Below are positions 20,049 through 50,272 of a DNA stretch of 64,000 nt, one piece after another (positions within the stretch are counted from its first letter, which is position 1; each line of letters begins with the position of its first letter). The position numbers and the translations under genes were made by a program. The notes beneath the pieces were generated by a model, which made no database searches, was not told the origin of the DNA, and saw only the letters and a list, made by a program, of their open reading frames with translations. The stretch comes from Rubripirellula sp. (GTDB taxonomy: Bacteria; Planctomycetota; Planctomycetia; Pirellulales; Pirellulaceae): positions 6,912,001 to 6,976,000 of the forward strand of contig OZ244207.1 in the NCBI GenBank assembly GCA_965216875.1. The letters are read 5' to 3'.

Positions 20049-21344
20049 CTATTCGTGCACGCCCTTGATCATGCTGGGTGCGAGAAAGACTCCACTGAAC
20101 ACCTCACTCGGGTGAAGTTCAACTTCGTTGTTTCGATACCCGGTTGCATCGAGTTGATCTTCCGTCAACGTGCCAGGAATCGGGAACCCAGGATTCAGAT
20201 AAAGGTCGCCGTTGCGATCACTGAAGCTTCGCACTGAACCGTCGGCAAAAAGCAAGTTAATCGCAAAGCCGCCCGAACCTGCATGGGTACCAGCCCACGC
20301 GAGTGTCGATTGAAGGTACATCCGGTTTCCTGCTCCACCGGTTGGTGGCTCACAAGAGCCATCCAATTCGCGCTTCCATTGCGTTTCCAATCGAGAGCCG
20401 TTGGATCCGATGCGTTTGATTTCCCGATCGCCCGTGTGATAGTAGGTCGGTCCTTCGCTGGCCGATTCACACAAAATTGTTCCCGCAGCGGCGAAGGTGC
20501 GTTCCGTCGAGTCGCCTCGCGCGAAGATGTCGGTCGAGTCATATGCGAAGGCGATTGGCGTGATCGCCTCATCGATATCACCTGGGCTCGCATCGCCTAG
20601 GAGCGGGATGTTGCTTTGCGGGATGTCGGTGACCGCAAGGAAGTCAACGCTCAACGGACCAAGCGTTTCGCGTTTGCCTCGTAAACCTTGTTGGGCAGCC
20701 TGGCCAGCCGTCCGAATGCTGTTGTCGCTTTCGCGGTATTGGATCCTTGGTGCAGTGTGAATCAGGAACCAGCTTGTTGCGTAGTTCGTGTTCAATCCTG
20801 ATTCGACGAAGTAACGCGTTACCAGAGCACGTCGTTCATCGGTCAACTCGTCAGTACTTGCAAAGCCCGAACTGGGTGAACCGGAACCTGAAATCCCATC
20901 CCAGTCTTGTTGGCCACACATGCCGTGGTTGTATCGGGCTCGTAGCGGCCCGGTCAGATCGTTCAATCCATCATTCGTTGGCAAACCATAAGCGTCGAGT
21001 AGTTTCTCGTTGACTCTCATCGTGTTGCTGGGACAGAGGACTGTCTCGGCGTCGGTCATGCCGACGTTGCGCAAGTCAGCCACCCAACCGTATCGGTCCA
21101 TGCAACCTTCACGCGAGTGGTCAAAGGCACCACTGCACAAGCGATTGTTGGGTGAACGTTGTGCATACCGCATCATGCCCACGCCCGCGTTTCGCAAATT
21201 GGCTTGGCATAGACTGCTGCGCGCCGCCTCTCTCGCTTTCACCACCGATGTGCTGATGAGGGCGGTTAGCAACGCGATGATCGCGACCACGACGAGTAGC
21301 TCGATCAACGTGAATGCAAATCGCCCTGTTGCCGAAGGTCTCAT
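20049..21344 (-). CDS. Prepilin-type DUF1559 protein (paralogue A)
   Basis: A^[31 protein letters not shown]-terminal H-x13-DG variant (HAGSGGFAINLLFADGSV). Confidence 0.92.
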   Translation of the reverse strand: MRPSATGRFAFTLIELLVVVAIIALLTALISTSVVKAREAARSSLCQANLRNAGVGMMRYAQRSPNNRLCSGAFDHSREGCMDRYGWVADLRNVGMTDAETVLCPSNTMRVNEKLLDAYGLPTNDGLNDLTGPLRARYNHGMCGQQDWDGISGSGSPSSGFASTDELTDERRALVTRYFVESGLNTNYATSWFLIHTAPRIQYRESDNSIRTAGQAAQQGLRGKRETLGPLSVDFLAVTDIPQSNIPLLGDASPGDIDEAITPIAFAYDSTDIFARGDSTERTFAAAGTILCESASEGPTYYHTGDREIKRIGSNGSRLETQWKRELDGSCEPPTGGAGNRMYLQSTLAWAGTHAGSGGFAINLLFADGSVRSFSDRNGDLYLNPGFPIPGTLTEDQLDATGYRNNEVELHPSEVFSGVFLAPSMIKGVHE

Positions 21345-21389
21345 TCTTTTGGTTCCCTGACGACGTTGGTGGCTGCCCCAATGCAGCGA

Positions 21390-21439
21390 AGTGTAGAGCC
21401 AACTTTCAAGCGGTCAAACGATTTTCATCGACTCTTCAT
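21390..21439 (-). promoter_or_regulatory. Putative sigma70 promoter for paralogue A with upstream tandem motif
   Basis: Minus strand: ATGAAGA/ATGAAAA direct repeats 11 bp apart (21433-21439, 21422-21428), then TTGACC (21412-21417)-16 nt-TACACT (21390-21395). Confidence 0.55.
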
Positions 21440-21669
21440 TCGCACGCTTACTCAAGAAGCAAGTGCGACAAGCTAGGAAACTAGAACTGCTCGAGTTAAT
21501 GAAGATTTCAAGAATTCAACGGCGTCAAAACGCGTTGGGTCTGGACAGAAAGTCGTCGGTTTTAAGAATCCGTACTGGCTGTGACGCGGTGGCTCAGTTG
21601 TGTGATGACTGGTGTCGCTTCACATAGGAAATGAATGCGTCAAGACTCATCAGGAGGCGGATTACGCCG

Positions 21670-22134: not shown

Positions 22135-22153
22135 GTTTTCGATCCAGAAGGCA

Positions 22154-22873
22154 CTACACGCCAAAATGACGTCGAAGCGCCATCGAAGCGGCGTCTTTTG
22201 AGTCGGAGGGGCCTTTGGGGCGGAGGTGTTCAGGGATCTTTTGCGGTCCCTTGGTTTCAGGTTCTGCCCCATCCGAATCTGCGACATTTGCATCCTCATC
22301 CGGCTTGTCTTTGGCGGCGGGTTTTGGAGGTTTGGCGACCGTTTCCGATTCAGCAGCTTGTTGCTGTGCCGTGTCCGCAGGATTGAGTTTGGATTCCTCC
22401 TCGAGTCGACGCCATTTCTCGTTGGCTTGATCGCGCGGTGGAACAAAGTCCAGGTTGGTGGTCAACGCGTCAAGTTCTCGTATCAGGTCTTCAGCGGATG
22501 AGTTGCCAGGCTCGGGGACCGCATCGGCGGTTGATTGGCTGTGTTCGGTGATGGGCTTGCCAGTATCCGCATCCCGTACGGAAATGCGAAACTTCCAATC
22601 GCCGATTTGGATTTTCTCGCGATGCGCCAGGACGCGTTCTTCGTTTTCGGCTAACCGTTCTCCGTCGACCAACGTCCCGTTGCGGCTATTCAAGTCCTGG
22701 ATGGTCACACGCGCGTCTGACACGACAATTACGCAATGGCGACGAGAGACCTTGTCACCTTTGAGGCAGAGGTCGCAATTGACGTGCCTGCCGACCAAAA
22801 ACTCTGCGACCTCGATCGGGACGCGCTGACCGCGACGACCACCGTTTCGATAGACAAGTTTGGAATGGATCAC
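22154..22873 (-). CDS. FHA domain protein
   Basis: LVGRHVNCDL, VSRRHC, DLNSRNGTLVDG; start tentatively GTG 22873. Confidence 0.88.
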   Translation of the reverse strand: MIHSKLVYRNGGRRGQRVPIEVAEFLVGRHVNCDLCLKGDKVSRRHCVIVVSDARVTIQDLNSRNGTLVDGERLAENEERVLAHREKIQIGDWKFRISVRDADTGKPITEHSQSTADAVPEPGNSSAEDLIRELDALTTNLDFVPPRDQANEKWRRLEEESKLNPADTAQQQAAESETVAKPPKPAAKDKPDEDANVADSDGAEPETKGPQKIPEHLRPKGPSDSKDAASMALRRHFGV

Positions 22874-23233
22874 GTCAGCTGACTTCGCCCCGAATGCAGC
22901 GTAAGAGGATGTCTGATAGTGAACAATCAAGCACGTCCGGCTGCGAAGTCAAGGTTACAATACGCGAATCTACCCCACCCGCTGGTGAAGGATTTGGATC
23001 TGGCATTCAGTATGTCGAGGAAAACGCGGCGATCCCATCTCGTCGGTCACGAAAACTTAAACGTTTCATCGAACAACATTCACATTGCCGAGGGAAAAAG
23101 GAGGCGTGCTTCGTGACGTGCGGGTGAGAGGTTGATGAAGACTTTGCGAGCATGCCAAAGCATTGCTCAGCTTGGCTTAAATTGATCGTCTTTCACTGCG
23201 AACTTAAGTGGTCAAACCAGACAACTGAGAGCG

Positions 23234-23815
23234 ATGTCCAAACTTGATCGACAGCTCGACGGACTCACTGGAGACGGACGCGTCGAGATTGAAATTTCAG
23301 AAGGACAGGACGTTGATGTCGGAGAGCTACATCAGCTACTTCGAAACGAAATCGATCGGCGTCACCATCGAATTCCTATCGATTTGCGTCGAGTTCATGG
23401 CGCTCCCGTCGAATTGATTGACGTGTTAATCAGTGCAGAGAAGTACGCGCGAAAGCAAGGTAAGATCCTAACGATCAGCTACGCGTTACCGCCGATGCAA
23501 GAAGCGCTCGATCCGATGCGACGACGAGCAACGAAATCGGCTCAGAAAGGGGACGAGGACGCCGGAGCTGCCGCCAAATCGTTGCTCGATGAGCAAAACG
23601 CGAGCGAGCATCGCTACGACATCACGAGAGCTGAGAAAATAGGACGCAAGCGAACGCGAAGGAATACGGGCAAGCAGTACGCGATCAAGCGGTACATTGT
23701 CTTGGGCTCGATTATCGCGGTCGCAACGCTTGCGATCGGCTGGATTGAATACGTGATTCTGTTCAACGAAAGTCCATCAACGGTTGTGCCTTCCAAGATT
23801 TTGGAAAGGCGGTAG
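23234..23815 (+). CDS. Hypothetical protein with STAS-like N-terminal domain and C-terminal TM
   Basis: IPIDLRRV...IDVLISAEKYARKQGKILTI resembles the STAS fold; TM YIVLGSIIAVATLAIGWI. Confidence 0.55.
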   Translation: MSKLDRQLDGLTGDGRVEIEISEGQDVDVGELHQLLRNEIDRRHHRIPIDLRRVHGAPVELIDVLISAEKYARKQGKILTISYALPPMQEALDPMRRRATKSAQKGDEDAGAAAKSLLDEQNASEHRYDITRAEKIGRKRTRRNTGKQYAIKRYIVLGSIIAVATLAIGWIEYVILFNESPSTVVPSKILERR

Positions 23816-23962
23816 CCGACGCACCCGGTCGCTGCGACGCTTGCCAAGCGAAGGCAGTGACGGCCGTGACCAAACGAACTTCAGTGATGACGTGCGAAGT
23901 CGAGTTGGCTCAGATACACTGGTTGGCTTCAACCATTTGCCACCACCAAATCTGAAATCCTC

Positions 23963-25363
23963 ATGCTGCGCACATTCTGTTTCCTCACGATCGCTTTCTG
24001 TTGTCTGTCGCTCCACGCGAACCGTCCCAATGTCATCTTGGTGATGTGCGATGATCTGGGATACGGCGATCCACAAAGCTTCAATGCCGATTCGCCCATC
24101 CAGACACCCCACATCGATGCGATGGTCAGCGACGGGTTGAAGTTCACTCGCTTTTACGCGGCAGCGCCAGTCTGTAGCCCGACGCGCGGAAGCTGTTTGA
24201 CGGGACGCCATCCCTATCGCTACGGGATCTACACCGCAAACGCAGGACACATGAGAGAGGGTGAGATCACGTTACCCGAGATCCTGAAGGAACAGGGGTA
24301 CACAACGGGCCACTTTGGAAAGTGGCACTTGGGAACGTTGACCAAGACGATCAAAGATGCGAATCGCGGCGGTCCGAAAGGCGCCAAGCACTTTGCCCTT
24401 CCTCAAACACACGGTTATGACACCGCGTTCGTGACCGAGTCCAAAGTGCCAACCTATGACCCGATGATCAAACCCGTTGGTGCAGGTAAACATGCTTGGG
24501 ATGCCATCGAGGATCGGTCGAAAGCACAAGCCTACGGAACCCGCTATTGGGATGAGGCGGGAGCCGAGGTGACAACGAACTTGCAGGGTGATGATTCAAA
24601 GTTGATCATGGATCGCGCCGTCGATTTCATTCAACAAGCTTCCAAAGAACAACAGCCCTTCTTCGCAGCGGTCTGGTTCCACGCTCCACACTTGCCCGTC
24701 GTGGCTGGCAAAGAGCACGTCAAACCCTATCAGCACTTCTCGGTCTATGAACGAAACTATTACGGCTGCATCACGGCGCTCGATCAACAAGTCGGGCGGT
24801 TGCGCGACACGCTCAAACGCCAGGGCGTCGACAGGAACACGATGATTTGGTTTTGCAGCGACAACGGTCCTGAAGGCCAGTCAGGGAAGGCACCGGGATC
24901 GGCGAGCGAATTTCGCGGACGCAAGCGATCTCTTTATGAAGGGGGAGTTCGAGTTCCCGGCGTGCTCGTTTGGCCCGGCCGAGTCAAACCGGGCGAAACC
25001 GATTTTCCATCGGTGACCAGCGACTACTTGCCAACCGTTCTGGATGCACTCGGTATCGGGTACCCGGACGGACGACCGCTTGATGGGGAGTCATTGCTAG
25101 GAGTGATTGAGGGCACGAAGTCCGAGCGGACCAGACCGATCGGGTTTCAATCTGCAAAACAGATTGCATGGCACGTTGGCAAACACAAGCTCTATAGCGG
25201 CAACGCCGGCAAGAACTGGGAGCTTTACGATTTGAGCGTCGACCCTCGCGAGGCCAACGACATCGCGAAAGATCACAAGTCGTTGGTGAAGCAGATGGTC
25301 AAAGCGGTGCGCGATTGGCAAGCCTCTTGCAAAGAGAGCGACAACGAGGCTGACTATCGCTAA
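23963..25363 (+). CDS. Arylsulfatase-family sulfatase
   Basis: PNVILVMCDDLGYGD, CSPTR, GKWHLG, SDNG, YEGGVRVP. Confidence 0.93.
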   Translation: MLRTFCFLTIAFCCLSLHANRPNVILVMCDDLGYGDPQSFNADSPIQTPHIDAMVSDGLKFTRFYAAAPVCSPTRGSCLTGRHPYRYGIYTANAGHMREGEITLPEILKEQGYTTGHFGKWHLGTLTKTIKDANRGGPKGAKHFALPQTHGYDTAFVTESKVPTYDPMIKPVGAGKHAWDAIEDRSKAQAYGTRYWDEAGAEVTTNLQGDDSKLIMDRAVDFIQQASKEQQPFFAAVWFHAPHLPVVAGKEHVKPYQHFSVYERNYYGCITALDQQVGRLRDTLKRQGVDRNTMIWFCSDNGPEGQSGKAPGSASEFRGRKRSLYEGGVRVPGVLVWPGRVKPGETDFPSVTSDYLPTVLDALGIGYPDGRPLDGESLLGVIEGTKSERTRPIGFQSAKQIAWHVGKHKLYSGNAGKNWELYDLSVDPREANDIAKDHKSLVKQMVKAVRDWQASCKESDNEADYR

Positions 25364-25393
25364 CGATTGTTGTCATCGGTGAGAAGAAAGTAC

Positions 25394-25528
25394 CACGAAT
25401 GACACGAATGACACGAATCAAGAGCTGAGCCGTGATCGCGTAAGCGGCCGGGCCTTCAGCGCTACTGCGCTTTGGCGTATGATTCGGCGGGTGGGGCAAG
25501 GGCCCGAGGCCTCACGGCCGGCGGCTCA
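25394..25528. repeat. REP-like intergenic element: 3x 9-nt repeat plus an inverted pair of imperfect palindromes
   Basis: cacgaatga-cacgaatga-cacgaatca (25394-25420); tgagccg...cgggcc (25426-25454) and its inverted relative ggcccg...cggctca (25501-25528), between convergent genes. Confidence 0.65.
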
Positions 25529-26447
25529 CGGGCGATTTCCGCCTTCCGATTGCCGAACAGACTCGGTCGACCAGCACGGCGGCGAGCGTTGCGGGAATAA
25601 GCATCAACAGTCGAATCGTTCCCATCGGCGCGTCATAGAATTGAAGCAGTGCCCCGATCAAGGCGACAGAACCTGAGAAGGTAAAGGCTGCCGCGATCCG
25701 CGCCGGGACGGTGACGATGTGAGTGCGGCGGTAGGGTAGACTTGCCAAGCCATAGCATGCCGTCCCCAGTAGGCAGAGCAGTGCTGCGGTAAGCACGGTG
25801 CTGATCACGGCACTCTGCCAACTCATGTTGGGTTGCAATGCAAACCCGCTCAAGGCACCAAAGAAAAGGCAGCCAGCCGAGAACCAAAAGATGCTTGCGT
25901 GAGTCTGGTTGCCTGTTTCAGGAACGGGTCTTCGTGGGACCGGCGAATTGTTGGACCGCCTGACCTGAACGGTGGCGACGATGGCGGATGCAATCAGGGT
26001 TACCATCAAGGTTAAGCCCCAAGAGGTGTATTCTCTTTGGAAACGCAGCAGTGACAAACACGTGTAAGCAACGCCCACGACCAAACCAAGCACGACGCCG
26101 GCAACCAATTGTGCGTTGCGATCGGCATTGGCTCGTTTGTGATCGAGAATTCGCAGGAGGAGGAAATAGAGGGCGACGACAAGCACCGATAACAGAGCCG
26201 TCGGAACGAGGCTCGAAACGAGCGTCAGGCCCAACGTGTTGAACGAGAAGAACCACCAGTAAGCCACACCATTGATGATGGCCAACACGGCCGCCGCAGC
26301 CCCGGCCATCCAGACCAAATCGGTGTTGCCCTGTTGAGGGACGACGATTTCCAGGTCTTCGACAGCTTCGGGGCTTTGATATGGATTTGCTGCGACATCG
26401 CCGGTTGATTCGGCAACCGACTGTGTATCGTCGCCCTGCTTGCTCAT
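25512..26447 (-). CDS. Hypothetical polytopic membrane protein
   Basis: NPYQSP N-terminal motif, about 8 hydrophobic segments; ATGA overlap with the serine hydrolase. Confidence 0.75.
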   Translation of the reverse strand: MSKQGDDTQSVAESTGDVAANPYQSPEAVEDLEIVVPQQGNTDLVWMAGAAAAVLAIINGVAYWWFFSFNTLGLTLVSSLVPTALLSVLVVALYFLLLRILDHKRANADRNAQLVAGVVLGLVVGVAYTCLSLLRFQREYTSWGLTLMVTLIASAIVATVQVRRSNNSPVPRRPVPETGNQTHASIFWFSAGCLFFGALSGFALQPNMSWQSAVISTVLTAALLCLLGTACYGLASLPYRRTHIVTVPARIAAAFTFSGSVALIGALLQFYDAPMGTIRLLMLIPATLAAVLVDRVCSAIGRRKSPVSRRP

Positions 26448-27829
26448 CGGATTCGTTTAGCCGTTTGGCGAATGCCGTTTTGGAACAGGGTCAGCGATTC
26501 GCACTCGCCGTCGCTGTTCATCTTGAACGTCAGCGAAGCTTGGACTTGCTTGTAGAACCATTCCGTTTCGGACTTTGGGTAGACGCGAAGTGTGGGTTGG
26601 TTTGCCAATCGTACCATCAGTTTCTTGTCGTCGACTTTGACATCGAAGACGAATCCAGGTGCGAGTTGGTACTTTCCCTCGTACCGCTTCATGACGTCCT
26701 CGGCGACTTCGATGGTCTTTTCAAATGTGCGAGGTTCGACCTCAGCACCGATCGCGACGCGGATCAGGTCGTTCGCGAGACGGTCGACCTCTCTTGTTGC
26801 GGTGTTGCAAAGGACAACCACAGCGGTGTTTTGTTGTCGATTGACAAGCAGCATGCTGTGATAGCCACCGGTTTGTCCATTGTGCCAACGTGTTTGGCCA
26901 TCACCAGCGAAGTGCCAACCAAGACCCATTTTTTGGCCAGCGTTAGCGTGTTCTTTCCATGCCAGTTCAATCGCTTTGCCGGTTGCATTGTCAGGCGGCG
27001 AGAGTTGCGCGGCGGCAAAGCGGAGCATGTCGTCGATCGTGCTTCGAATCCCACCAGCACCAGGCAGATCGGCAAAATCCCAGTTGTGATTAGGGGTGTT
27101 GCCCGTCGAATGCGGCAGGGCCAAACGTGACTTCATCGAATCAGTCATCGCAACCGAGGTGCTTTCCATCTTGAGCGGCGCGGTGATTCTCGCTTCAAGC
27201 ATCTCGTCGTAACTCACGCGGGAGGGTTGAGCGACGAGGTAGCCCAGTAGCGATGCGCCCAGATTCGAATACTGGTATTTCGAGCCGGGTGCTCGAATCA
27301 GCTTGTGATTGCTGACGAATTCGAATCCGAGTTTCGAAGTGTAATCGTGATACGGGTTGTTGCTCCGCAAACTTGGCATGTTGTTGCCAAGACGCGGTAG
27401 TCCAGATTGATGTGTCGCTAAGTCAAGGAGTGTGATCTCGCGATCTTCCCATTTGGGAAAGGTAGATCCCTTGGGTGCCAGTTCGGTGGCGGGTTGATCG
27501 AGTTTCACCTCGCCCGCTTCGACGGCGCTGGCAAGCAGAAGGCCGGTAAAGACTTTCGAAATGGAGCCGATTTCGTACACCGACTGATCGTTTGGTGTCA
27601 CACCTGGACGTGCTTCGCCAAAGTGAGCGGTCGTCCGATCGCCGCGACTGAGCACGCCAATCGAAATCGCTTTGGCGACTTCCGCATCGATATAGGGCTG
27701 AGTGTGAGCAGCGATGTTCTTCTTCAGGTCCGCACTTTGAGCAAATGCCGTGCTTCCAAAGAGGGCGAGTCCGATCGTGAAGGCTGAAAAGGAACGCCGA
27801 TGGATGAGGGCCAGGGGTGTTCGTCTCAT
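26444..27829 (-). CDS. Serine hydrolase, beta-lactamase/AmpC-like family, with C-terminal DUF3471-like domain
   Basis: EIGSISK (SxxK), LATHQSGL, YSN, HNGQTGG; C-terminal YEGKYQL. Confidence 0.9.
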   Translation of the reverse strand: MRRTPLALIHRRSFSAFTIGLALFGSTAFAQSADLKKNIAAHTQPYIDAEVAKAISIGVLSRGDRTTAHFGEARPGVTPNDQSVYEIGSISKVFTGLLLASAVEAGEVKLDQPATELAPKGSTFPKWEDREITLLDLATHQSGLPRLGNNMPSLRSNNPYHDYTSKLGFEFVSNHKLIRAPGSKYQYSNLGASLLGYLVAQPSRVSYDEMLEARITAPLKMESTSVAMTDSMKSRLALPHSTGNTPNHNWDFADLPGAGGIRSTIDDMLRFAAAQLSPPDNATGKAIELAWKEHANAGQKMGLGWHFAGDGQTRWHNGQTGGYHSMLLVNRQQNTAVVVLCNTATREVDRLANDLIRVAIGAEVEPRTFEKTIEVAEDVMKRYEGKYQLAPGFVFDVKVDDKKLMVRLANQPTLRVYPKSETEWFYKQVQASLTFKMNSDGECESLTLFQNGIRQTAKRIR

Positions 27830-28131
27830 CGTTGTCTAACTCCGGTGGAAAGGGACGCCTTTGAAGCCAAGCGGCTATCGATCACTTCGCATTCGTGCAA
27901 AGGGTTCGTGTCTTGGGAATGAATGGGATTGTTCAGATATTTTGCGAAAACTTTATGAGAGCTACCATCTGAGTGCCAATGTAACAGCCACACAAACGAA
28001 TCGGGCGGTTTTGTAGGTCCTGCGCCGCATGCTCAAGCCACAGCAATGCGTGCCGCACCGACCTGCGTCGCCAATACGAAACGATACCAAACACGTCTGT
28101 TGGTTTGCCCGCATCCGGGCAAAATCAAAAC

Positions 28132-29940: not shown

Positions 29941-30008
29941 GGACTTTTCGCAGCGCGCGACGAGTTTGTCTCTCCGGTGCAAGCTAAACTGAACGATTGT
30001 TGCGAAGC

Positions 30009-31007: not shown

Positions 31008-31032
31008 GACGCTTGCTACAGCTGCGTTGACA

Positions 31033-31068
31033 AAATGAAGATTTCGAGTGTTAACGAAATCTTCATTT
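31033..31068. promoter_or_regulatory. Perfect 14-bp-arm inverted repeat (operator or hairpin) upstream of the Ser/Thr kinase
   Basis: AAATGAAGATTTCG-agtgttaa-CGAAATCTTCATTT, immediately after TTGACA (31027-31032). Confidence 0.65.
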
Positions 31069-31201
31069 CAAGGGAGCCGAAAGCACTCGTATGCTAAGCG
31101 CTATGGGCTTGCGGTTGGCATTTCTCGTTACATCGTTTTCGGTTCGAAGCGTTAGAATAGCGCCGCGTCTCTGATCGCATCAACATCCCGCAGGTGAAGG
31201 G

Positions 31202-32749: not shown

Positions 32750-32818
32750 CTTCGATTCCCCTTGGCGGTGCGTCGGCATCGAAATTCATTGTTGCGATCA
32801 GGTATTACCGAATCGACT

Positions 32819-33661
32819 ATGCCGCGACTTGTGCTTCAAACCGGCAGCCACGCCGGTTTGGAGGCTCCGCTTCAAGCTGGCTTCTACATGATTGGTCGGC
32901 ATAAGGAGTGTCAGATTCGTCCGAAGAGCCGATCCGTTAGCCGCCGGCACTGCATTGTTCACCGGCACGACCAAGGTGTGCGTGTACTCGATCTGGATAG
33001 CACGAGTGGGACGCGAATTGACGAGGAGCGGCTTGTGCCGAAGACATGGGCCGAGCTAACGAGCGGTTCCATTTTGCGGGTCGGGAAAATCAGTTTCAAA
33101 GTGGTGTTCGAGGAGCTTCAGTCGGCCGGAAAACACGCAGTCGTTGCGGCAGATGCGGCCGCGGAAGGGTCGCAAACGATGGTCACCGGCGCAGCTTGGC
33201 AAGAAGCGGACATTGCCGAATACCTCGACACCGAAGACGCGGCTGACCAAGAGCGGCGTTACGATGCCATTCGGTCGGGAACGCAATCCATGACCGACAC
33301 GATCGCAGGCGATGGGTTGCCTGATTTGGATGATCCCGACGCGTTGGTCGACGATGATCAGGACACGGATACTGATATTGAAGCACCTGAGGCAGAGGCA
33401 TCCGCTGGTACGCAAGCCAGGGGCAAGGTCGAAACGGCGCCTAGCACCACGAAAACCAAGAAAGTCCCGAAGCGTTTCGGGAAGCTGCCCAAGAAGAAGA
33501 AACGCCCCACGGGCGCTGGCGGAGGTCTGTTTAGTGACATCGAACGGTTGAAGATGATCGGTGCCGCGCTTTTGCTGGTGACCACCATTGGCGTTCTCGG
33601 CTATAGCGGTTACCGATTTTTTGCTGGCCCTGAAGTTCGGGTGATCGAGGGGATCGACTGA
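32819..33661 (+). CDS. FHA domain protein with C-terminal TM anchor
   Basis: IGRHKECQI, VSRRHC, DLDSTSGT; acidic then basic linker, TM; start ATG 32819. Confidence 0.9.
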   Translation: MPRLVLQTGSHAGLEAPLQAGFYMIGRHKECQIRPKSRSVSRRHCIVHRHDQGVRVLDLDSTSGTRIDEERLVPKTWAELTSGSILRVGKISFKVVFEELQSAGKHAVVAADAAAEGSQTMVTGAAWQEADIAEYLDTEDAADQERRYDAIRSGTQSMTDTIAGDGLPDLDDPDALVDDDQDTDTDIEAPEAEASAGTQARGKVETAPSTTKTKKVPKRFGKLPKKKKRPTGAGGGLFSDIERLKMIGAALLLVTTIGVLGYSGYRFFAGPEVRVIEGID

Positions 33662-33728
33662 TTTCGCGTATCCAGGGTCCGCGCAACGCGGTTGTTTGCC
33701 GTTGTGCCGCCCATGAGCGCGGCCGCTT

Positions 33729-33872: not shown

Positions 33873-34599
33873 ATCGCGTCCATCGCGGGGCCGGCGAATC
33901 GTCAAAGAGGTCAAAAGTTGACCGGGCCAGAATCGAACTGGCATTGCGGGACGACCTAATCCCACTGCTCACCAATACGCCGCCGGTCTGTGGTTGCGTC
34001 TCCCTCTTCGCGGCATGCGTTCATTGCAACCAGGTCAAGGGAGGGCGTGATGGCCATGGTTTAATAGGTTCAGCTCTCTTGTCGACACAAAACTGAAGAC
34101 TTCGATCCCCTTTTGATCATTCTTCATCCGCTCTGGAAACCTTCTTCATAACTATTGGTTCCGTGGCGCGTTTCCCATTCCCCGGAACGTCCTTGTGGAA
34201 GACTTTGCGCTAGACAGCACGAATGCTGTGGCAGTTGCTCCGCATCGGGTCTGGCGTTCTGAGGCAGGGATCAACATGAAGAATCAACATGAAGAATCGA
34301 TGAACCGAATCTCGGCTTCGTAGCACACATGTTTGACCGGATGCGGAAGCGTCTAACAGCAGCTTGCACTTTATGGTGGCGCCTGGCGCCCTAAGCAGTC
34401 GGGGCCAGGAGTTTCGAAATCCTTCGCGCTTGTGAAGAATCAAATTGTTCTGGCGATTGCGGTTGAAATCGTCGATCAGCTTCAGAACATTCAGCACACG
34501 AGCGTTGGGCAGGAGCAACATTGCTTCCTGAATCCCCAGATTGGGAATTCTCAGCTCCAACACTCTACCCTCACATTTTCTTCACAAGGGCCTGTTTCA

Positions 34600-35844
34600 A
34601 TGTCGCTCAACTTTGGCGGGAAAGCATTGGACTCAGCAGACAGGATTGCCGGCAAGATGCGGCGACACGGTTTCACACTGATCGAACTCCTGGTGGTTAT
34701 CTCGATCATCGGTATTTTGGCTGCTCTCTTGTTGCCAGCGGTTTCAAAGGCACGCGAAAGTGCACGCGGCGTTGAGTGTCAGAACAACCTCAAAAACATG
34801 GGCGTGTTGCTGACCAGTCGCACGGTGACTGCGCCGGATGGCGCCTTTTGTTCGGGCAGCTTTGATCCCATTCGCGATGGCGTTCCGACCGAAACGGGTT
34901 GGGTTGCAGACCTTGTCGCTCGCGGCGCGATCGTCAGCGAAATGCGTTGTCCAAGCAATGCGGCAGTGACAAGCAAAGCGATTGAGCAACTTTTGACGGT
35001 CCCCCACGCCGACTTGTCGAATACTCAATGTGGTGACCTTTTGGGAAGCGTGTCGTACACCGACGCGATGGGCCAATCGGTCGTGAATATCAGTCGCAAG
35101 ATTGTTGACGATTCACTTGCACCGCTTGATCCGGCAAGGGCCGAGTTGATCGACGAAAAGATGCTCCAGCAAGGATACAACACGAACTTCGCAGCGAGTT
35201 GGTTTCTCGTTCGCAGCGAGTTTCGGCTCAACGAAGACGGCGATTTGACGCCAGCGGACCCAGCGTGCATGGATACCGACCCGAAAGGCAAGAACGTCAC
35301 GCGCGGCCCACTGACAACCCGCTTGGTCGACAACGGAAAAGCCCCGGCGAGCACGATTCCTTTGTTGTCCGACGCGGCAGCAGTTGGTTTCTTGTCTGCC
35401 CAGGTTGGTGAATTGCCGAGCGGCTCGTTCTACACCACTCCGATTGTCGGATCGCCGATCGGCAATCGGGCACAGATTGATACCAACGCTGACGGGACAG
35501 CAGATGCGATGAATCCCCACTTCATGGAAGTCCCGAGTTTCGGTGGTTCTGTTCCGCGTGAAGGGGCGACAGGTTGGCTAAAGACTTGGAGCTATGACAC
35601 GCGTCAAGACTACCGCGGCATGGCGACTTTGCATCAAGGGGTTTGCAACGTGTTGATGGCAGACGGCAGTGTCCAGGCATTGCTCGACGCGAACGACGAC
35701 GGCTTTTTGAACAACGGCTTCGACGGTGCCGAGACGGCGCCGCAGCCAGGCGGTGTTGTGTTTTGGACTTCTTCGGACGTCGAAGCGGGGCCTTTGGATC
35801 TGGCAAGCTACTATTCGCTGACCTCGAAAGGCGAGCAGAACTAG
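34600..35844 (+). CDS. Prepilin-type DUF1559 protein (paralogue B)
   Basis: RRHG^[29 protein letters not shown]-x9-DG ([12 protein letters not shown]); start 34600 or 34657. Confidence 0.93.
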
Positions 35845-36228: not shown

Positions 36229-37518
36229 ATGTCGCGTATGCGAAAAGCAGGTTTTACCCTGATCGAACTGTTGGTGGTTATCGCCATCATCGCTCTGTTG
36301 GCCGCGTTGTTGCTGCCAGCAATCACCAAGGCACGTGAAGCTGCTCGTGCAGCTCAATGCCAAGCCAACCTCAAGAACATTGGCGTTGGTCTGTTCAAGT
36401 ACAGCGTCCGTAACCCAGGTGGCGCTTTCTGTAGCGGTGCAAGCGACTTCCGTCGCGACGGTTGCATGGACACCTACGGTTGGGTTGCTGACATTGTCAA
36501 CATCGGCGATGGCAACATGAACGAGTCTCTCGACCCAAGTAACCCTCTTCGTGGTTCGGAAAAGCTGAACGACTTGCTCGGCTCGGACACGACTGACAAC
36601 AAAGACAACGCTCCATTGGTTCGTTTGGCTGCTGGCGTTTGTGGCGACACTTCGTGGGCTGGCGTGACAGGAAGTGGTGGTACCACCTTCTTCGCTGCAA
36701 CGACGAACAACTCGGAAGAGCGTGCAGAGCTCATCTCGCGTGCCTTCCTCACCGAAGGCTACAACACCAACTACGCAGCTGGTTGGCACTTGGTGCGCGG
36801 CATGATCAAGACCGAATCGGTTGACGTTGGTGGCGGTGTCATTGAAATGATCAGCCACTCGACTTTCGACCAATACAAAGGTATTGGCGGAACGACTGGT
36901 CCTCTGACTGCAAACACTCTTGACCGCAGCCGCATCAGCAGCAGCAATATTGGCTTCATCGGTTGTGCATCGCCTGGCGATATCGACGAAGCGATTTTGA
37001 ACGTCACTCTGTCGCACGACGGAATCACCCGCAACGTTTTCGCTAACGGCACCGACGACGCAGTTGAGTACATCACTGCTGGTTCGCTCTTGACCGAAGC
37101 GTTCAACGACGGTCCTGCCTACTGGAATGGTTCAGCTAACGTGATCGACCTGATCGGTGACAGCGAAAACCTTGAAACTCAACTTACCTGTGAGCGTTCG
37201 GCTCCAACGACCAGCCAATGTGGTGAGCCACTTGGTCCTAACGGAACTTTGGCTGCTCGCACTGCAACCTACTTGCAAGACACCCGTGACTGGTACGCCA
37301 TTCACCAAGGTTCGTGCAACATCCTGATGGGTGACGGTAGCGTAAAGGTTTTCTACGACAACAACGCAGACGGATTCCTGAACCCAGGTTTCCCAGTTTC
37401 CGCTGCTGCTGATCCAGCTGCAGTTGGTTACAGCGACAGCACCGTTGAAATGGCTCGCGACCAGTTCTTTGGTGGCATGTTCATCAACGACCAATACTTC
37501 AAGGGTGCGTTCGAATAA
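36229..37518 (+). CDS. Prepilin-type DUF1559 protein (paralogue C, putative major subunit)
   Basis: MSRMRKAG^[40 protein letters not shown]; codon usage rich in GCT/GGT/CGT/ACT. Confidence 0.95.
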
Positions 37519-37551
37519 TCGACGCTCAATATTTGAATCGAATGAAATGGC

Positions 37552-37584
37552 GCCCCCGCAGTTTTTAACCGCGGGGGCCTTTTT
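37552..37584 (+). terminator. Rho-independent terminator after paralogue C
   Basis: GCCCCCGC-agtttttaacc-GCGGGGGC followed by cTTTTT. Confidence 0.85.
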
Positions 37585-37617
37585 GCTACAGAAACGAAAG
37601 ACTTGACCTTAACAACC

Positions 37618-38817
37618 ATGAAACAGTTTTCGAAAAGGCTGATTGCCGGCGTCGTCGGGCTTGCAGCATTTGGCGTGTCTGGTTCCTGTCTCGCACTTCT
37701 TGTTGAGTACAAGCCATACGGTGTGTCGGATCGTCAACGGGGCGAATACGAACAGAAGGTTGCAGAGATTCATAGCCGCCAGAAGCTTCTAAAGGATCTG
37801 AAAGACCAAGCCAAACCGGTCGTTGAGGTAAAAGACACCATCCATGATTTCGGTATGCTTGACCCGCATACCACTGCCGTGCACGCCTTTACGGTTAGCA
37901 ACAAGGGTGAGCACCCGCTCAAACTTGAAGTGCGCGATACCAGCTGCAAGTGCACCGTCGGAAAGCTCACCAATAACCTTCTCGGGCCAGGCGAAAGCAC
38001 AAAAGTGACCATGACCTGGAACACTGGCTACAAAGCCGACACCTACGAGCAAACCGCGACGCTCATCACCAACGATCCGCTAAAGGAATCGATTCAGCTG
38101 AAGGTGAAAGGCGAAGTGCGAGCCGAGTTTGTCGCGCCCAAGCGAGTGAGCTTCACAGCGATTGATCCCGCCGAAACGGCGACAGCCGAGTTTGTGGTTT
38201 ACAGCCAGCTTTGGGATGACTTTCAGATCACCGAACTGAAATGTGATTTGGAAGGTTTTCAGTGGCACGCCGAACCAACCGATGTCGACGCTGCGGGCCT
38301 AATCGATGTTGACGCAAAATCGGCCTGGAAAGTCACCTTGTATGCCAGTCGGTTTGAATACGGCAAATTCGAAAGCGATCTCGAGTTGATGGCCTCCCCA
38401 ACATCGGGCGGAGATGACGTGACTCGAACCATCGTGGCCGCTGGTCGTGTGCGAGCGGCGATCGGATTCACCGGTCCTAACCTACATAAGACGGATGGAC
38501 TGGATATTGGCACGCTCGTCTCGGGCAAGGAGCATCAGTTTCACGTCGTTGTCCGTACCCGAGATCAGGGGCAGCGAAGCATCGAAGTTCTTGACGTTCA
38601 GCCGCAAGAGCTGACAGCGAGCCTGGAACCAACGACCCAGGAGGGTGCATACCGGCTGACGTTGACCGTGCCAGCTGATTGCGATTCGGTTGTGTTCAAC
38701 ATGGGCCATCAACACGGCTACGTTCAGGTCGGCGATCCCAAAGACGAGCGGTACTCAAACTGGTTTCCGGTCTTCGGCGCCGTCGCCTCGCTTGAGAACG
38801 CCGCAGCAAAGAACTAA
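37618..38817 (+). CDS. DUF1573 (Ig-like) domain protein
   Basis: N-terminal anchor; HDFG...HAFTVSNKGEHPL...TSCKCTVG...TNDP. Confidence 0.88.
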   Translation: MKQFSKRLIAGVVGLAAFGVSGSCLALLVEYKPYGVSDRQRGEYEQKVAEIHSRQKLLKDLKDQAKPVVEVKDTIHDFGMLDPHTTAVHAFTVSNKGEHPLKLEVRDTSCKCTVGKLTNNLLGPGESTKVTMTWNTGYKADTYEQTATLITNDPLKESIQLKVKGEVRAEFVAPKRVSFTAIDPAETATAEFVVYSQLWDDFQITELKCDLEGFQWHAEPTDVDAAGLIDVDAKSAWKVTLYASRFEYGKFESDLELMASPTSGGDDVTRTIVAAGRVRAAIGFTGPNLHKTDGLDIGTLVSGKEHQFHVVVRTRDQGQRSIEVLDVQPQELTASLEPTTQEGAYRLTLTVPADCDSVVFNMGHQHGYVQVGDPKDERYSNWFPVFGAVASLENAAAKN

Positions 38818-38921
38818 GTGCTGGCGGTGATACCTCCTATCACAGTGAGGCGATCGGTGGTCTCGAATATGCCACAAGGTTGAGTTCAAAAACAGCATCC
38901 GAAGCCGAAGTACATATCAGA

Positions 38922-41120
38922 ATGCAACCCGGAAGTAATTCATTGAAAGCAGCAGAGTTGGTTCAGTGCGGCGCCTGCGGGCACGCGAATTCATCGGGCA
39001 CAAACTTCTGCGAAGGATGTGGTCACAATCTCTACGAGCCATGTGGCAATTGCGGTAAGTCCGTTGTTCTCACTCAAAAATTCTGTGGTGCCTGCGGTGC
39101 CGATTTGGAAGAAGCCACTGCCAGGACTCACAAGCAGCACGAACATTGGATGGCCACGGCGGTTGAATCGGCAAAGAACTATGACTTTGATCATGCGGCC
39201 GCCTTGCTCGGGCGGATCGCATCCCTAACCGACTATCGCTACAAAGAAGCAGCCGATGGCGCTGCGACGGCGATCGAGAAAATCGAGGCGATGAAGAAGC
39301 GGTCAATGGATCAAGCCGCTGAAATGTACACGCGTGCGAAAGCCGAAGCGGACAAGGGGAATCACTTGGCAGTCGTTCGCCTGCTAAAGCAGATCCCCGA
39401 AAAACTGATGAGCGAGGATGCCAAGAAGATCCTCAATCGTGTCCAGGCCTATACCAATGAGTTGTCGGAACTGGAATCGGCCGTCCAGCAAGCCATCGCC
39501 GAAAAGAACTGGCAGCTTGTTGGGGGACTCGTTGAGCAGTTGTTAAGTCATTCCCCCGAAGAGCAAGCCTATTTGCAGATCGCAGAGCAAGTCGGCAAAC
39601 GTCTGCGGAAAGAGGCGCAAGCCTACTTTGAAAAAGGTCGCTACGATCGCGCTGTCGAACGGCTTGAATCGGTGCCATCTTGTGCCCAACCGGAATCGTT
39701 CGACCAGACGCGTCAGCGATACGATGACACTCTCTGGCTTTCGCGACAATTTGACGACGAGCCTTATGTGACGCCACTGCTCGGTCGCTTGGCCGTTCGT
39801 TTTTCGAAAGACGTTCCTGAAAACAAAGAGGCGGCCGAGCAGGTCAAGCAATTTGCCGGGCACCTCAAGACATCCAAACGACCGCCACGTAGTCCCTACC
39901 CCGCGTGGAAAGGCTCTGCAGCTGCGTGGATTGGCGGCGATGCAACGCTGTTGGGATTCCCAACGGCGATTGAGATCGGTGACCACAATCTGTTGAAGTC
40001 GTGTGGTGCGCGTTTTCACGTTGCGATTGGGTTGTCACTTCAGGGGCTTGGTCACGCTCGAGTGAGTGAGCATTTCGCGCCCAAGAAAGGGCTGTTCAAG
40101 TCTATCGGTTGGCGAAAAAAGAAGCCGGTTTGGGGCATTGATCTTGGCAGTGCGTCGATCAAGGCCGTTTGTCTTGAAGAGACCGATGACGGCATCACAG
40201 TGATCGATACCTACTACAACGAATTTGAAGCACCAACCTGCCGCACATCGGGCGTAGACGCACAGGATGTGATTCAAGAAGCGGTCACACGTTTTGCCGA
40301 AGAGAAAGAAATCGGTGACACCCCGGTTTGGATCAACGTACCCGCAGCCGATTTGGTGAACCGGTTTGTGCGACTGCCGCCGGTCTCGGACAAGCAGGCC
40401 GACAATCTGTTGACCGCTGAAATCGATCAAAAGATCCCCATTCCGGCAGAAGATCTGTCGGTCGTTCGCTGGCTCGGTGAGCAACCGCCCGACGACGCAC
40501 AAGGTCGCCCTGCATTGGTTTCGGCGGCCAAACGTACCGTTGTCGAGCAACGCTATGAACTGCTTACCGAAGCGGGGTTGAAGATCGCTGGCTTTCAGGG
40601 CGATCCGATTGCGATGGTGAATTTCCTTGCCTTTGAGTTCTCGGACCTGATTTCGCCGCCAGAGGACGAACCAGAACCGAAGAAGAAAAAAAAGAAAAAG
40701 GACAAGCAAGAGGAAGAAGTTCCCGCGTTTGACCCAGATGCGAAATCAACAGCGATCGCAGCGATCGAATCGGGCGCGAAATCGACCACGTTGATTATCG
40801 TTTCGGGCGAAGCGCACTGGTTCTGGAGTCTTGAAACAGGTGGTGAGGACCTCACATCAGCGCTTGCAAGGGCAACCAAGCAAACGCACGCCGAGGCCGA
40901 GAAACAAAAGCGAAATCCAGCAGCGATCGAGAAGCCCTCGAAGCACTATCAGGCTGTGTCACAACGATTAGATGAAACACGTGCCCGCCTGGAAAAGGCC
41001 TATGAAGATGCCCAACGCCAAAACACTCGATTTGACGTAGTTGAAAGTTGGGCGATGGGGGGCGGTTGCTTGGCTCATCAATGGATGCGCCGAACGATGT
41101 TAAAGCAAAGAGTGGACTGA
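38922..41120 (+). CDS. Double-zinc-ribbon / helical repeat / PilM-like (actin-fold) fusion protein
   Basis: Four CxxC motifs at the N-terminus; WGIDLGSASIKAV, RFVRLPPV, IESGAKST, GGEDLTSALA...AEAEKQKR, GGG. Confidence 0.8.
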   Translation: MQPGSNSLKAAELVQCGACGHANSSGTNFCEGCGHNLYEPCGNCGKSVVLTQKFCGACGADLEEATARTHKQHEHWMATAVESAKNYDFDHAAALLGRIASLTDYRYKEAADGAATAIEKIEAMKKRSMDQAAEMYTRAKAEADKGNHLAVVRLLKQIPEKLMSEDAKKILNRVQAYTNELSELESAVQQAIAEKNWQLVGGLVEQLLSHSPEEQAYLQIAEQVGKRLRKEAQAYFEKGRYDRAVERLESVPSCAQPESFDQTRQRYDDTLWLSRQFDDEPYVTPLLGRLAVRFSKDVPENKEAAEQVKQFAGHLKTSKRPPRSPYPAWKGSAAAWIGGDATLLGFPTAIEIGDHNLLKSCGARFHVAIGLSLQGLGHARVSEHFAPKKGLFKSIGWRKKKPVWGIDLGSASIKAVCLEETDDGITVIDTYYNEFEAPTCRTSGVDAQDVIQEAVTRFAEEKEIGDTPVWINVPAADLVNRFVRLPPVSDKQADNLLTAEIDQKIPIPAEDLSVVRWLGEQPPDDAQGRPALVSAAKRTVVEQRYELLTEAGLKIAGFQGDPIAMVNFLAFEFSDLISPPEDEPEPKKKKKKKDKQEEEVPAFDPDAKSTAIAAIESGAKSTTLIIVSGEAHWFWSLETGGEDLTSALARATKQTHAEAEKQKRNPAAIEKPSKHYQAVSQRLDETRARLEKAYEDAQRQNTRFDVVESWAMGGGCLAHQWMRRTMLKQRVD

Positions 41121-41129
41121 GGTAGCGAA

Positions 41130-43262
41130 ATGACAATGTCGATGCGGACACTTCTGTCCAAAACACAAATCAGATTCTCTGGCAAGCAAGCAAGCGTTTT
41201 GGCCTTGCTCGTGTTTGTGCTTCCTGGCGTTATCTCAACGGTTGGTTGCGGGCCAAGTCAGGAAGACATGCTGATGCGCGCTGCCCAACGCAAACGGGCC
41301 AACAACGACGCGGACGAAGCAGAAGAAAAGAAGGACAAGTCAAAACCCAAAGCCCCCAAACCTTCCAGGGCGGTTGCGGCGGACGAAAAGAAGGCCGAGG
41401 AAACCAAGCAACCTGAGACCAGCAAAGTTGCCAAGGATCAAAAACCACTTGAGGCAATTAGGCCCATCGAAGAGCGAAAAGACACACTTTCCGGTGAAGC
41501 CAAGCGTCAACGCTCGGCGCAAAATATCGAGAAGATAGCCGGCGCGATCATGGCCTACTATAAAGATCGAGGAAACTATCCCAGAGCCTACTACCAGACC
41601 GCAAATAAATTCAAAACGCTCTCTTGGCGAGTCGAATTGTTGCCCTACCTAGGCTACGAAGAACTCTATAAGAAGTTCGACACAGACGTTCCGTGGAATC
41701 GAGAGCCCAACAAGAGTCTGCTGAAATACATTCCCGATGAATATGTTTCACCTGAGCGTTTTGACACCAACACGAACTACCAATTGCCCGCGCATCGCAA
41801 GTACATGTTTGGTGATAACCGAGGGCGTTCGCAGAAACAACTTGAAGATGGTCATGAAAACACCATCATGCTGGTCGAGGTCGATGATGCCATCGCCGTG
41901 CCGTGGACCAGTCCTCAAGACTATTCTCCAAAGCGGTTCAGCAAATTTGACGGTGAACTCGGAGGCTTGCGGAAAGACGGAGCGTTCGCGGTTTGGGCCA
42001 ACGGTTGGACGGTTCTTCTCGCCAATGAGCTGTCTGCGAAGCAGATCAACGATGCTCTTACCTTTGAAGCGGGAGATGGTCAAAGAGCGGGCATGATCCA
42101 TCGCGACATCCCAGTTGGGAAGATAAGCGATGCTTCGGTCGCGTCAGTGAAAAAACCAAGTGCGCCCAAGCCGGTCAAAAACGATTCGTCCAAACCGCAA
42201 AGCAGTCTGCCCATCGCATCATCGGTAATGCGAGCACGAGAGCCGGTACCGAAGAACGCGGATGTCAAAGCCGCGCGAGCAAAACTGACAAAGCTGTTTG
42301 CTGACAAGATTTCAAATGCCAAGACCGACAGCGCCAAGTCAAAACTCGCGACCGACATGTTGGGCGTCGCAGCTGGCATGGAAACCGACAAGCCCGGAGT
42401 GTATTCACTGCAAGGTGCTGCGATGACGCTTGCCGTTCAATGCGGCGACGCGGACACTCTGATTGATGCAATTGATAATCGTGTCGGGATCTTTGAGGTC
42501 GATGCCTATGAAGAGAACATCACATGGTTGTCAAAGTTCGCCCGCGAAACGATCAGTCGCAAGCCTGACACCATCGAGAATTCCAAGCTTCTGCAGCGTT
42601 CAACACGAGTGATTTATGCTGGGATCGCCGACAACGATTATATGCGGGCATCAGCCATCGCTCGGATGTGTTACCGATTAGTCGATGAAGAACGAACTGA
42701 ACGTGTGCCACGTCTCGTCAATCGCCTTCGATCTTTGCTCGGGAATGCGAACCTCGAATACAAAAACTCGCTGCAGCACCTCCAAGCATTCCGAGACGAT
42801 CCTGAAGATGCCGAGGCCGCCGCTGCTTTTGGGCGTTTCCTCTGTTTCATCAAGGGTGATTGGGGTAATGGGTTGCCGCTATTGGTAAAAGGCGGCCCCG
42901 AGCAACTGCGTGAATTAGCTCAAGCCGATCTGAAAGGAGCCGGCGATACAATTAATCGCATTGCCCTTGGCGATGATTGGTGGAGTCTGAGTGAGATGGC
43001 CCGCACCGGTGTCTATCGCCAGGCAGCCCGAGACCGGGCGGTGTACTGGTATCAAATGGCCTACGATTCGCTTCCCGATTCTCTCGATCGTATGCATGTC
43101 AAAAGTCGCCTTGACGAGGCGTCGGACATCGACGGCACGAGTCCAATTGCGTTGACGTTGCAATTGGCCGACGAACTCGACGTCGATTTGACAGTTGGTC
43201 TCGCGGCTGTTGCGGAAGTTGGCCAAACACGCAAACGCAAGCGAGACGATGACGATGATTGA
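41130..43262 (+). CDS. Putative lipoprotein with DUF1559-like domain and C-terminal helical domain
   Basis: Lipobox-like STVG-C; LSWRVELLPYLG...LYKKF...PWN, DGHENTIMLVE, VPWTSPQD; no prepilin motif. Confidence 0.75.
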   Translation: MTMSMRTLLSKTQIRFSGKQASVLALLVFVLPGVISTVGCGPSQEDMLMRAAQRKRANNDADEAEEKKDKSKPKAPKPSRAVAADEKKAEETKQPETSKVAKDQKPLEAIRPIEERKDTLSGEAKRQRSAQNIEKIAGAIMAYYKDRGNYPRAYYQTANKFKTLSWRVELLPYLGYEELYKKFDTDVPWNREPNKSLLKYIPDEYVSPERFDTNTNYQLPAHRKYMFGDNRGRSQKQLEDGHENTIMLVEVDDAIAVPWTSPQDYSPKRFSKFDGELGGLRKDGAFAVWANGWTVLLANELSAKQINDALTFEAGDGQRAGMIHRDIPVGKISDASVASVKKPSAPKPVKNDSSKPQSSLPIASSVMRAREPVPKNADVKAARAKLTKLFADKISNAKTDSAKSKLATDMLGVAAGMETDKPGVYSLQGAAMTLAVQCGDADTLIDAIDNRVGIFEVDAYEENITWLSKFARETISRKPDTIENSKLLQRSTRVIYAGIADNDYMRASAIARMCYRLVDEERTERVPRLVNRLRSLLGNANLEYKNSLQHLQAFRDDPEDAEAAAAFGRFLCFIKGDWGNGLPLLVKGGPEQLRELAQADLKGAGDTINRIALGDDWWSLSEMARTGVYRQAARDRAVYWYQMAYDSLPDSLDRMHVKSRLDEASDIDGTSPIALTLQLADELDVDLTVGLAAVAEVGQTRKRKRDDDDD

Positions 43263-50263: not shown

Positions 50264-50272
50264 GTACGCCAC

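Follow-up and report, generated by a model that had tools for sequence, protein, structure and literature searches.

A conserved five-gene cassette of planctomycetes with two DUF1559 prepilins, a PilM-like protein and a Pho-box-type repeat

Proteins with the DUF1559 domain form the largest paralogue family of planctomycetes (PMC10632474, PMC8567305), an expanded family whose function is described as unknown in the available parts of the literature (PMC2754498, PMC10632474, PMC8567305). Pili-like fibres of 12 nm and 6 nm have been described in Planctopirus (PMC5394234), and the fibres of planctomycetes are also covered in PMC12673574; the available parts of the open literature on these pili-like fibres name no subunits. 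On gene essentiality in Planctopirus, supplement 5 of PMC10632474 (that supplement only) holds no DUF1559 entry. Here we analyze a 64-kb window of a Rubripirellula sp. genome (the whole stretch G000:C1:6912001-6976000 of a single contig of 8.26 Mb), for which a preliminary description had proposed a type-IV-filament-like system with large DUF1559 pilins that borrows a core machine encoded elsewhere. Our results support such a module, and show that its conserved unit is made of five genes, coding for pilin B, pilin C, a DUF1573 protein (D), a PilM-like protein and a lipoprotein. In the available parts of the open literature on planctomycete pili and phosphate we found no description of this cassette, subscription journals lying outside the search.

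The closest described system is the type IVa pilus (Thermus PilM-PilN, 2YCH; Pseudomonas, 5EOU; the large PilA of Myxococcus). The cassette resembles it in the class III signal with F1, E5 and P22, the predicted 51-residue alpha1 helix, the actin-like fold of PilM, the PilN-type peptide, and a probably abundant pilin whose gene is followed by a hairpin. It differs in having a subunit of 421 amino acids as compared to up to 297, a PilM that is permuted, is fused to zinc ribbons and helical repeats and lacks the membrane part of PilN, and a locus without motor, platform or secretin genes, to which DUF1573 and lipoprotein genes and a predicted Pho-box-type promoter are added. The nearest relatives of the PilM part are the planctomycete PilM-PilN fusion (G000:C1:3478510-3480747) and the Amuc_1101 family (NF045709); as compared to the fusion, the segment order of the cassette protein is reversed and the membrane helix and periplasmic part are absent, and its NF045709 score is 69 against a cut-off of 650. 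Among planctomycete DUF1559 (PF07596, SBP_bac_10) and H-X9-DG (TIGR04294) proteins, B and C pass the cut-offs of both families, and a third pilin of the window (A) and the lipoprotein pass that of PF07596 only. Whereas most DUF1559 members are scattered paralogues (PMC8567305), the cassette subfamily is present in one to three copies, keeps fixed neighbours and comes with a PilM variant of its own.

In Pseudomonas aeruginosa, low phosphate is described to induce the Hxc type II secretion system, which is of the type IV filament kind, and PstS-rich appendages (PMC2242829). Hxc is a complete secretion system with small pseudopilins that exports a phosphatase, whereas the cassette is an add-on module with predicted giant subunits. 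The repeat upstream of B resembles the cyanobacterial Pho box of SphR (PhoB), CTTAACCT (PMC1906773), in its 8-bp repeats, 3-bp linker, CTT(A/C)AC core and presence before pstS, and differs from it in that the predicted planctomycete sites stand before B in both orientations.

Conservation of the cassette and its pilins

Loci for comparison were taken from 40 regions picked for their long contigs and from the GTDB collection, in which 466 stretches matched and the best 80 were used; these 80 are all from planctomycetes, the named ones from Pirellulales, and the sample leans to close relatives. Duplicate removal left 111 loci, 66 of which had room on both sides of the C gene. In these 66 loci C was accompanied by D in 62, by B in 59, by the PilM-like gene in 53 and by the lipoprotein gene in 46, with all five genes present in 37, so that the synteny of these five genes, a check suggested in the preliminary description, is conserved across relatives. 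No additional neighbour family recurred in more than six of the first 40 loci (antisense open reading frames, ORFs, aside), and no core-machine gene was conserved beside the cassette in 40 loci.

A C gene was detected in 66/120 genomes of the family. A sample of the phylum yielded a C-type gene in 2/2 genomes of the source genome's own family, 15/24 of another family (f3) and 0/274 other genomes, and a sample of the class in 45/150 genomes; the N-terminal half of the PilM-like protein, queried as a single sequence, was found in 32 of 150 genomes of the order. In family f3, a protein of 1,060-1,120 amino acids follows C in 7 of 13 loci (L153, L155-L159, L162), with a Cys-rich N-terminus, HEAT repeats and a WD40 propeller (HEAT and WD40 in the 6 that were scanned), which is possibly another cytoplasmic partner replacing the permuted PilM.

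All gene positions given in the preliminary description, for three prepilins, the DUF1573, PilM-like and lipoprotein genes, a kinase and two FHA genes, hold. The prepilins A (20049..21344, minus strand), B (34657..35844, plus strand) and C (36229..37518, plus strand) each match N_methyl and DUF1559 above the Pfam cut-off. Among the 62 prepilin-motif ORFs of the genome (about 42 of them DUF1559-type by a rough motif count) they align over their full length solely with each other (A-C 40%, B-C 34%, A-B 31%), and matches of the remaining ORFs are confined to the first 50-90 amino acids. They do not form a conserved trio in the sense proposed earlier: A is a patchy paralogue of C that lacks Pro22, falls into its own clade with copies from L035 and L070 in a tree of 45 rows, and lies outside the conserved unit. 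The single orientation claimed for the locus holds for B, C and the genes downstream, all on the plus strand, and fails for A; the two halves of the locus are separated by 7 kb of other genes (sulfatase, acyltransferase and others, 23963-31007).

B and C both carry a class III signal above the cut-offs of PF07963 and TIGR02532, with a basic leader, cleavage between G and F, E5 and a hydrophobic N-terminal part of alpha1; F1 and E5 are invariant across 42 C-type rows. Mature C has 421 amino acids, is acidic (isoelectric point, pI, 4.4) and contains many invariant Asp, Glu, Arg and His residues. Modelling of C by AlphaFold2 (AF2), a check that had been suggested in the preliminary description, predicts a pilin-like architecture (predicted local distance difference test, pLDDT, 90) with an alpha1 helix of 51 residues over positions 3-53; F1, E5 and P22 are present. 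In a wide VIA search against structures 17 of 18 rows were pilins; these matches, spanning residues 1-378, would suit a pilin core into which a large insertion is placed, though they are weak (best Z 4.1).

Codon usage, scored with weights from nine housekeeping genes chosen by motifs, places C 5th among 4,601 ORFs, and 1st when the mature part alone is scored (0.152, as compared to -0.099 +/- 0.024 for resampled codons). B and A are ordinary in this respect (74th and 45th percentile). With the same weights, C has the top codon adaptation of its own locus in 84 of 86 relatives, exceeding B in 90/92 cases, D in 99/100, the PilM-like gene in 83/84 and the lipoprotein gene in 70/70. Its gene is followed by a GC-rich hairpin with a U tail (37545..37584, plus strand; -21.6 kcal/mol, z -2.8), and such a hairpin (z<-2 against mononucleotide shuffles) was found after C in 77/110 loci as compared to 9/92 for B, 8/100 for D and 8/81 for the PilM-like gene. 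We predict that it acts as a terminator or as an mRNA-stabilising stem; a combined sigma-70 and terminator scan, which missed it, retrieved nothing above shuffles. The codon and hairpin signatures agree with the earlier view of C as an abundant subunit, and C looks like the major subunit of the system, with B as a predicted minor one.

Six other DUF1559 genes of the genome (G000:C1:2603078, 4868418, 6984932, 6986481, 6314718 and 6803734) are of the common DUF1559 subfamily, show codon adaptation at the ribosomal level and have no strong Pho-type box. They are candidates for further abundant subunits.

The PilM-like protein and its companions

The gene at 38880..41120 (plus strand) encodes a double zinc ribbon, helical repeats and a PilM-like region, with Pfam reporting the double zinc ribbon and a partial PilM_2 match (E 4e-15). 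The preliminary description had recognised this fusion and missed the unusual order of the PilM part. In a profile built from 30 sequences, positions 397-701 correspond to residues 4-312 of the canonical PilM of this genome and positions 325-385 to residues 315-373, the latter match having a conditional E of 1.8e-10; the C-terminal 60 residues of PilM, together with a peptide, have thus moved to the front. The swapped order was also seen against solved PilM proteins, where the front piece in 5EOU runs into the PilN peptide INLL and where the small front pieces are not significant alone. The moved piece contains the LQGLG helix leading into the peptide, as in the planctomycete PilM-PilN fusion, and in many homologues it closes with a peptide of the form N/D-L-x-P. 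The membrane helix of the canonical fusion is absent by alignment, a distinction that hydropathy alone does not make between the two proteins. The permutation is exact and family-wide, and the family has at least 150 full-length representatives at 50% clustering.

The AF2 model of the protein (pLDDT 90) has PilM as its best match, with a Foldseek E of 2e-15 to 5eoy and a VIA Z of 24.4 to 2ych (root-mean-square deviation 2.9 over 283 residues, the alignment ending at residue 329). At the sequence level the match to the PilM of the same genome scores 244 bits, with GspL matches being far weaker. Among homologues the GG adenosine and DxG motifs are mostly kept and the phosphate-1 motif is variable; the helical part gave low scores only in the Atlas. 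Judged by these alignments and folds, the protein is a circularly permuted PilM with a built-in PilN-type peptide and without a membrane anchor. The circular permutation mentioned in PMC4471445 refers, in the part of that paper available, to PilN/PilO folds. Since PilB is described to dock on PilM and PilM to bind the cytoplasmic part of PilN (PMC11656802, PMC4471445), a soluble PilM that would be occupied by its own peptide is best read as a motor adaptor or a decoy. Many homologues (L042, L043, L045, L048, L054 and others) have an extra N-terminal domain of 110-140 amino acids, for which the two scanned gave no Pfam match.

As had been noted earlier, the core machine is encoded outside the window: T2SSE, T2SSF, secretin and A24 peptidase have no match within the 64 kb, and elsewhere in the genome there are 16, 21, 12 (secretin-domain) and 4 matches, respectively. 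PilB, PilC, PilT, a secretin and PilM are all available, as a type IVa pilus would need, and the PilB-like ATPases number seven. The canonical PilM is present in one copy as a 745-amino-acid fusion, and PilN (PF05137) had no match in the genome.

Between C and the PilM-like gene lies D (37603..38817, plus strand), an Ig-like protein (DUF1573, E 5e-18; HYDIN-like Ig) with an N-terminal membrane anchor by hydropathy, which among PDB sequences retrieved only 2qsv (E 3e-4, uncharacterised). The last gene of the cassette (41130..43262, plus strand) codes for a predicted lipoprotein made of a non-pilin DUF1559 domain (Pfam E 8e-18) and a planctomycete helical domain of no known family. Lipobox-like signals occur in the protein and in its homologues, and its tail matches unnamed planctomycete clusters in the Atlas; a search of PDB sequences found nothing, and a profile comparison with C gave a probability of 1.5%.

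The repeat upstream of pilin B

The preliminary description had linked the two halves of the window by a shared, unnamed intergenic motif. The link is real and the motif is an 11-bp-period Pho-box-type repeat; the exact 12-mer GAAGACTTTGCG common to positions 23137 and 34198 (10 copies genome-wide, 7 of them in ORFs) was rejected as a by-product of that repeat. The heptamer RTGAAGA/TCTTCAY was counted 88 times across 86 B-upstream regions as compared to 12.6 times in dinucleotide shuffles; the gap ranking first genome-wide for this 7-mer is a tandem repeat and not a promoter. Motif searches retrieved TCTTaACcnaaTCTTcACAttc before pstS of 23 relatives and nCTTCACcnnTTCTTCAC before B, which are nearly equal. 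Since the seeds of these searches were similar, the real test is a matrix derived from pstS only.

This matrix ranks the held-out pstS of the genome 1st and a Na/Pi cotransporter 4th. At a score of at least 11 it detects 67 of 86 B-upstream regions, against a background of 2.0% in shuffles and 1.8% in 2,159 upstream regions of the genome, and 60 column-shuffled matrices detected a mean of 2 and a maximum of 7 of the 86 regions. A period of 11 yields 74/86 B-upstream regions, any other period only 9-16 of them, and 54 of 70 regions still score after thinning of similar ones. Hits are rare before D (3/100), the PilM-like gene (3/84) and the lipoprotein gene (3/70), and 17 of 286 other long ORFs of the same loci score, several of them sharing a gap with B. 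In 15 loci without B, the region upstream of C scores at least 11 in 5 cases and at least 9 in 11 cases; the C genes of family f3, a lineage differing at the order level and without B, have a box in 7/13 cases. Of all 62 prepilin ORFs of the genome 3 reach 11, B being the highest. The B-upstream repeat is therefore of the Pho-box type and matches pstS promoters.

Two dyads stand before B in the window. One is an 11-bp direct repeat antisense to B (34285..34306, minus strand), whose score of 16.8 is the 9th highest in the 8.26-Mb genome. The other (34568-34589, plus strand; score 14.8) is followed by a predicted -10 element, TTCAAT (34596-34601), at an offset equal to that of pstS, forming a predicted activated promoter of the cassette (34568..34601) with loose geometry. 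Because the ATG at 34600, previously taken as the start of B, lies inside this predicted -10 element, we shifted the start to 34657, which is probably correct and gives a mature protein of 390 amino acids from 34672. Across relatives, a loose -10-like hexamer at the pstS offset was found at 13/51 sense sites, as compared to 0-3 at other offsets and 0/36 at antisense sites.

The genome contains a phoR-pstSCAB-phoU-phoB-like operon, and control of the cassette by PhoB is the best reading of these promoter patterns; the repeat would point to His-Asp (PhoR/PhoB) transcriptional control rather than to Ser/Thr control. A role in DNA uptake found no support, given the acidic character of C and the lack of a box at comEC.

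Genes similar to phosphate ABC transporter ATPases lie less than 10 kb from the cassette in 5 of 40 loci (L041, L054, L056, L062, L069). A three-repeat Pho-type array (58913-58945; scores 16.9 and 15.3) stands elsewhere in the window between divergent genes, one of them beta-propeller lipoprotein-like, and a weak box (10.0) is found at 21422 near A.

Proposed filament, rival readings and neighbouring genes

Taken together, the five genes may produce a thick type IV pilus built from C under phosphate shortage by a machine encoded elsewhere, a proposal for and against which we see the balance as even. Phosphorylated PhoB would activate the promoter before B, the hairpin would render C far more abundant than the products of the downstream genes, and PilD would cleave and methylate B and C. 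B would then prime or cap the fibre, and C would polymerise via its alpha1 helices with the large insertion facing outward. The permuted PilM, with the built-in peptide occupying its PilN site, would serve as a soluble adaptor docking the PilB motor for C, with its zinc-ribbon and helical part giving specificity, and D and the lipoprotein would be membrane-tethered helpers for the oversized subunit. The kinase-FHA pair described below would be a fellow member of the regulon and not a core part. The fibre might serve attachment to, or capture of, phosphorus-bearing particles, which is the least supported step. A bolder version, by which this phosphate-starvation pilus, made of the largest major pilin known (about 420 amino acids) and plugged into the shared machine by a soluble permuted PilM with its own PilN peptide, turns one motor to another filament in a plug-in manner and corresponds to the thick fibres at crateriform structures, is tentative and on the whole doubtful.

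From the dozens of DUF1559 paralogues the cassette picks out a single conserved gene of low copy number. It offers a predicted inducing growth condition and a putative dedicated assembly factor, and is a candidate for one of the unexplained appendages of planctomycetes. If true, the proposal would widen the known span of major pilin sizes by about 40%, and would reveal a new wiring of the PilM-PilN adaptor.

Several observations weigh against the proposed pilus. Major type IVa pilins span 42-297 amino acids in a survey of 1,955 sequences (PMC11046646), so that C at 421 exceeds every one of them; its fold matches to pilins are weak, with Foldseek giving no match to the model at E<=0.001, and the six DUF1559 genes listed above also lie beyond the 98th codon percentile, which detracts from the uniqueness of C. 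The window copy of the permuted PilM has a degenerate peptide, SEHFAP for INLLP, and in family f3 C occurs without B, D, the PilM-like protein and the lipoprotein in 13/13 loci (some cut short). As for regulation, the box before B is in sense orientation only in 34 regions, antisense only in 22, both in 12 and absent in 18 (n=86), and a strict TAnnnT follows 2/57 sense sites as compared to 9/20 at pstS. Just one phosphate gene was recognised among 22 proteins beside the top matrix hits, 1 of 8 phoD-family genes and no alkaline phosphatase gene has a box, none was found at the nine core pilus, secretin, peptidase and comEC genes scored, and the genome encodes six OmpR-type regulators.

The alternatives, which are not all mutually exclusive, draw on several of these points. 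C and B might be abundant membrane-anchored or short periplasmic pseudopilus proteins, binding phosphorus solutes or pushing substrates through a secretin and forming no long fibre. The head of C, far larger than in known major pilins, its invariant Asp, Glu, Arg and His residues, which would suit a ligand or metal site, and the several DUF1559 paralogues that look highly expressed would all fit, as would the N_methyl plus SBP_bac_10 proteins described in detergent-soluble fractions of Tuwongella (PMC8567305) and the low-phosphate precedent of Hxc (PMC2242829). We consider this rather unlikely, since the associated PilM derives from the type IV pilus PilM and not from GspL, alpha1 is full with E5 and P22, and a single very abundant subunit with a hairpin fits a long polymer.

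The near identity of the motifs learned at B and at pstS, together with the activating geometry at 13 of 51 sense sites including that of the window, makes it unlikely that some other OmpR-type regulator recognises the repeat, or that PhoB acts as a repressor and the fibre belongs to a growth phase or to phosphate-replete conditions. Such a reading would account for the mixed orientation and scattered positions of the boxes, for the number of OmpR-type regulators and for top matrix hits that mostly are not known phosphate genes; it would also account for the housekeeping-level codon bias of C, against which stands the 98.9th codon percentile of pstS itself. It is quite improbable, in our view, that the permuted PilM is a decoy that silences or redirects the ordinary pilus by sequestering PilB or PilT: alignment shows neither a membrane helix nor a free PilN site in it, its phosphate-1 motif varies and C exists without it in another family, yet 53 of 66 loci retain it in an operon with the pilins and its GG adenosine and DxG motifs are largely preserved.

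Upstream of the cassette lie a membrane Ser/Thr kinase with a C-terminal hydrophobic helix (31202-32749, plus strand) and an FHA gene (32762-33661, plus strand), preceded by a Pho-box-type dyad (31049..31070, plus strand; score 16.4). A perfect 13-bp inverted repeat (31034-31068) overlaps this box. Further upstream, a divergent FHA gene (22154-22930, minus strand) is paired with a STAS-like gene (23234-23815, plus strand) with weak boxes in between; the STAS-like gene named earlier is indeed present, as a weak match of 21.5 bits below the Pfam cut-off of 29.2. Locus counts led us to reject the kinase, FHA and STAS genes as conserved parts of the cassette: of 81 loci with 4.5 kb upstream, 3 have the kinase orthologue next to it, 10 a kinase of any type, 2 an FHA gene and 0 a STAS gene.

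Among 49 genomes, 36 of them chosen for carrying C, 8 have a close kinase orthologue, with the FHA gene directly following in 8/8, a box score of at least 11 before 7/8 of these unlinked orthologues, and no cassette beside any of the eight in the fetched regions. STAS was found in 2/16 genomes, with a box upstream in both. Kinase and FHA are therefore a probably co-regulated two-gene unit outside the conserved cassette, and the boxes at this unit and at STAS explain why both halves of the window had seemed linked. Direct control of fibre assembly by the kinase and FHA proteins, as first proposed, is unsupported and very improbable: the pair is conserved and shares the box, it is adjacent to the cassette here and in L074, L102 and L106, and less closely related kinases directly precede B in L037, L038, L124 and L133, but the orthologue is rarely beside the cassette, few genomes have it even in a C-enriched set, 1.1 Mb separate it from the cassette in G016, a genome of the same genus, and these genomes hold dozens of kinases, so that such neighbours arise by chance.

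Directly after the lipoprotein gene is a sugar cluster (43195-55652, plus strand; glycosyltransferase, DUF2304, ABC exporter, NeuB) with Pho-type boxes at 45365 (15.8) and 52498 (14.3), and close homologues of its glycosyltransferase are found beside the cassette in L074, L082, L094 and L097. A further gene (55675-57432, minus strand) codes for a 585-amino-acid multi-pass membrane protein with tetratricopeptide repeats (TPR), single copy in the genome, that matched TPR families only and may resemble TMTC-type glycosyltransferases. Its homologues occur in 13 cassette loci, two of family f3 included, often directly after the lipoprotein gene or D, and it is a candidate pilin-modifying enzyme. 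Elsewhere in the window, a 449-amino-acid ORF (12135-13484, minus strand) has, by eye, an unusual sigma-factor-type look.

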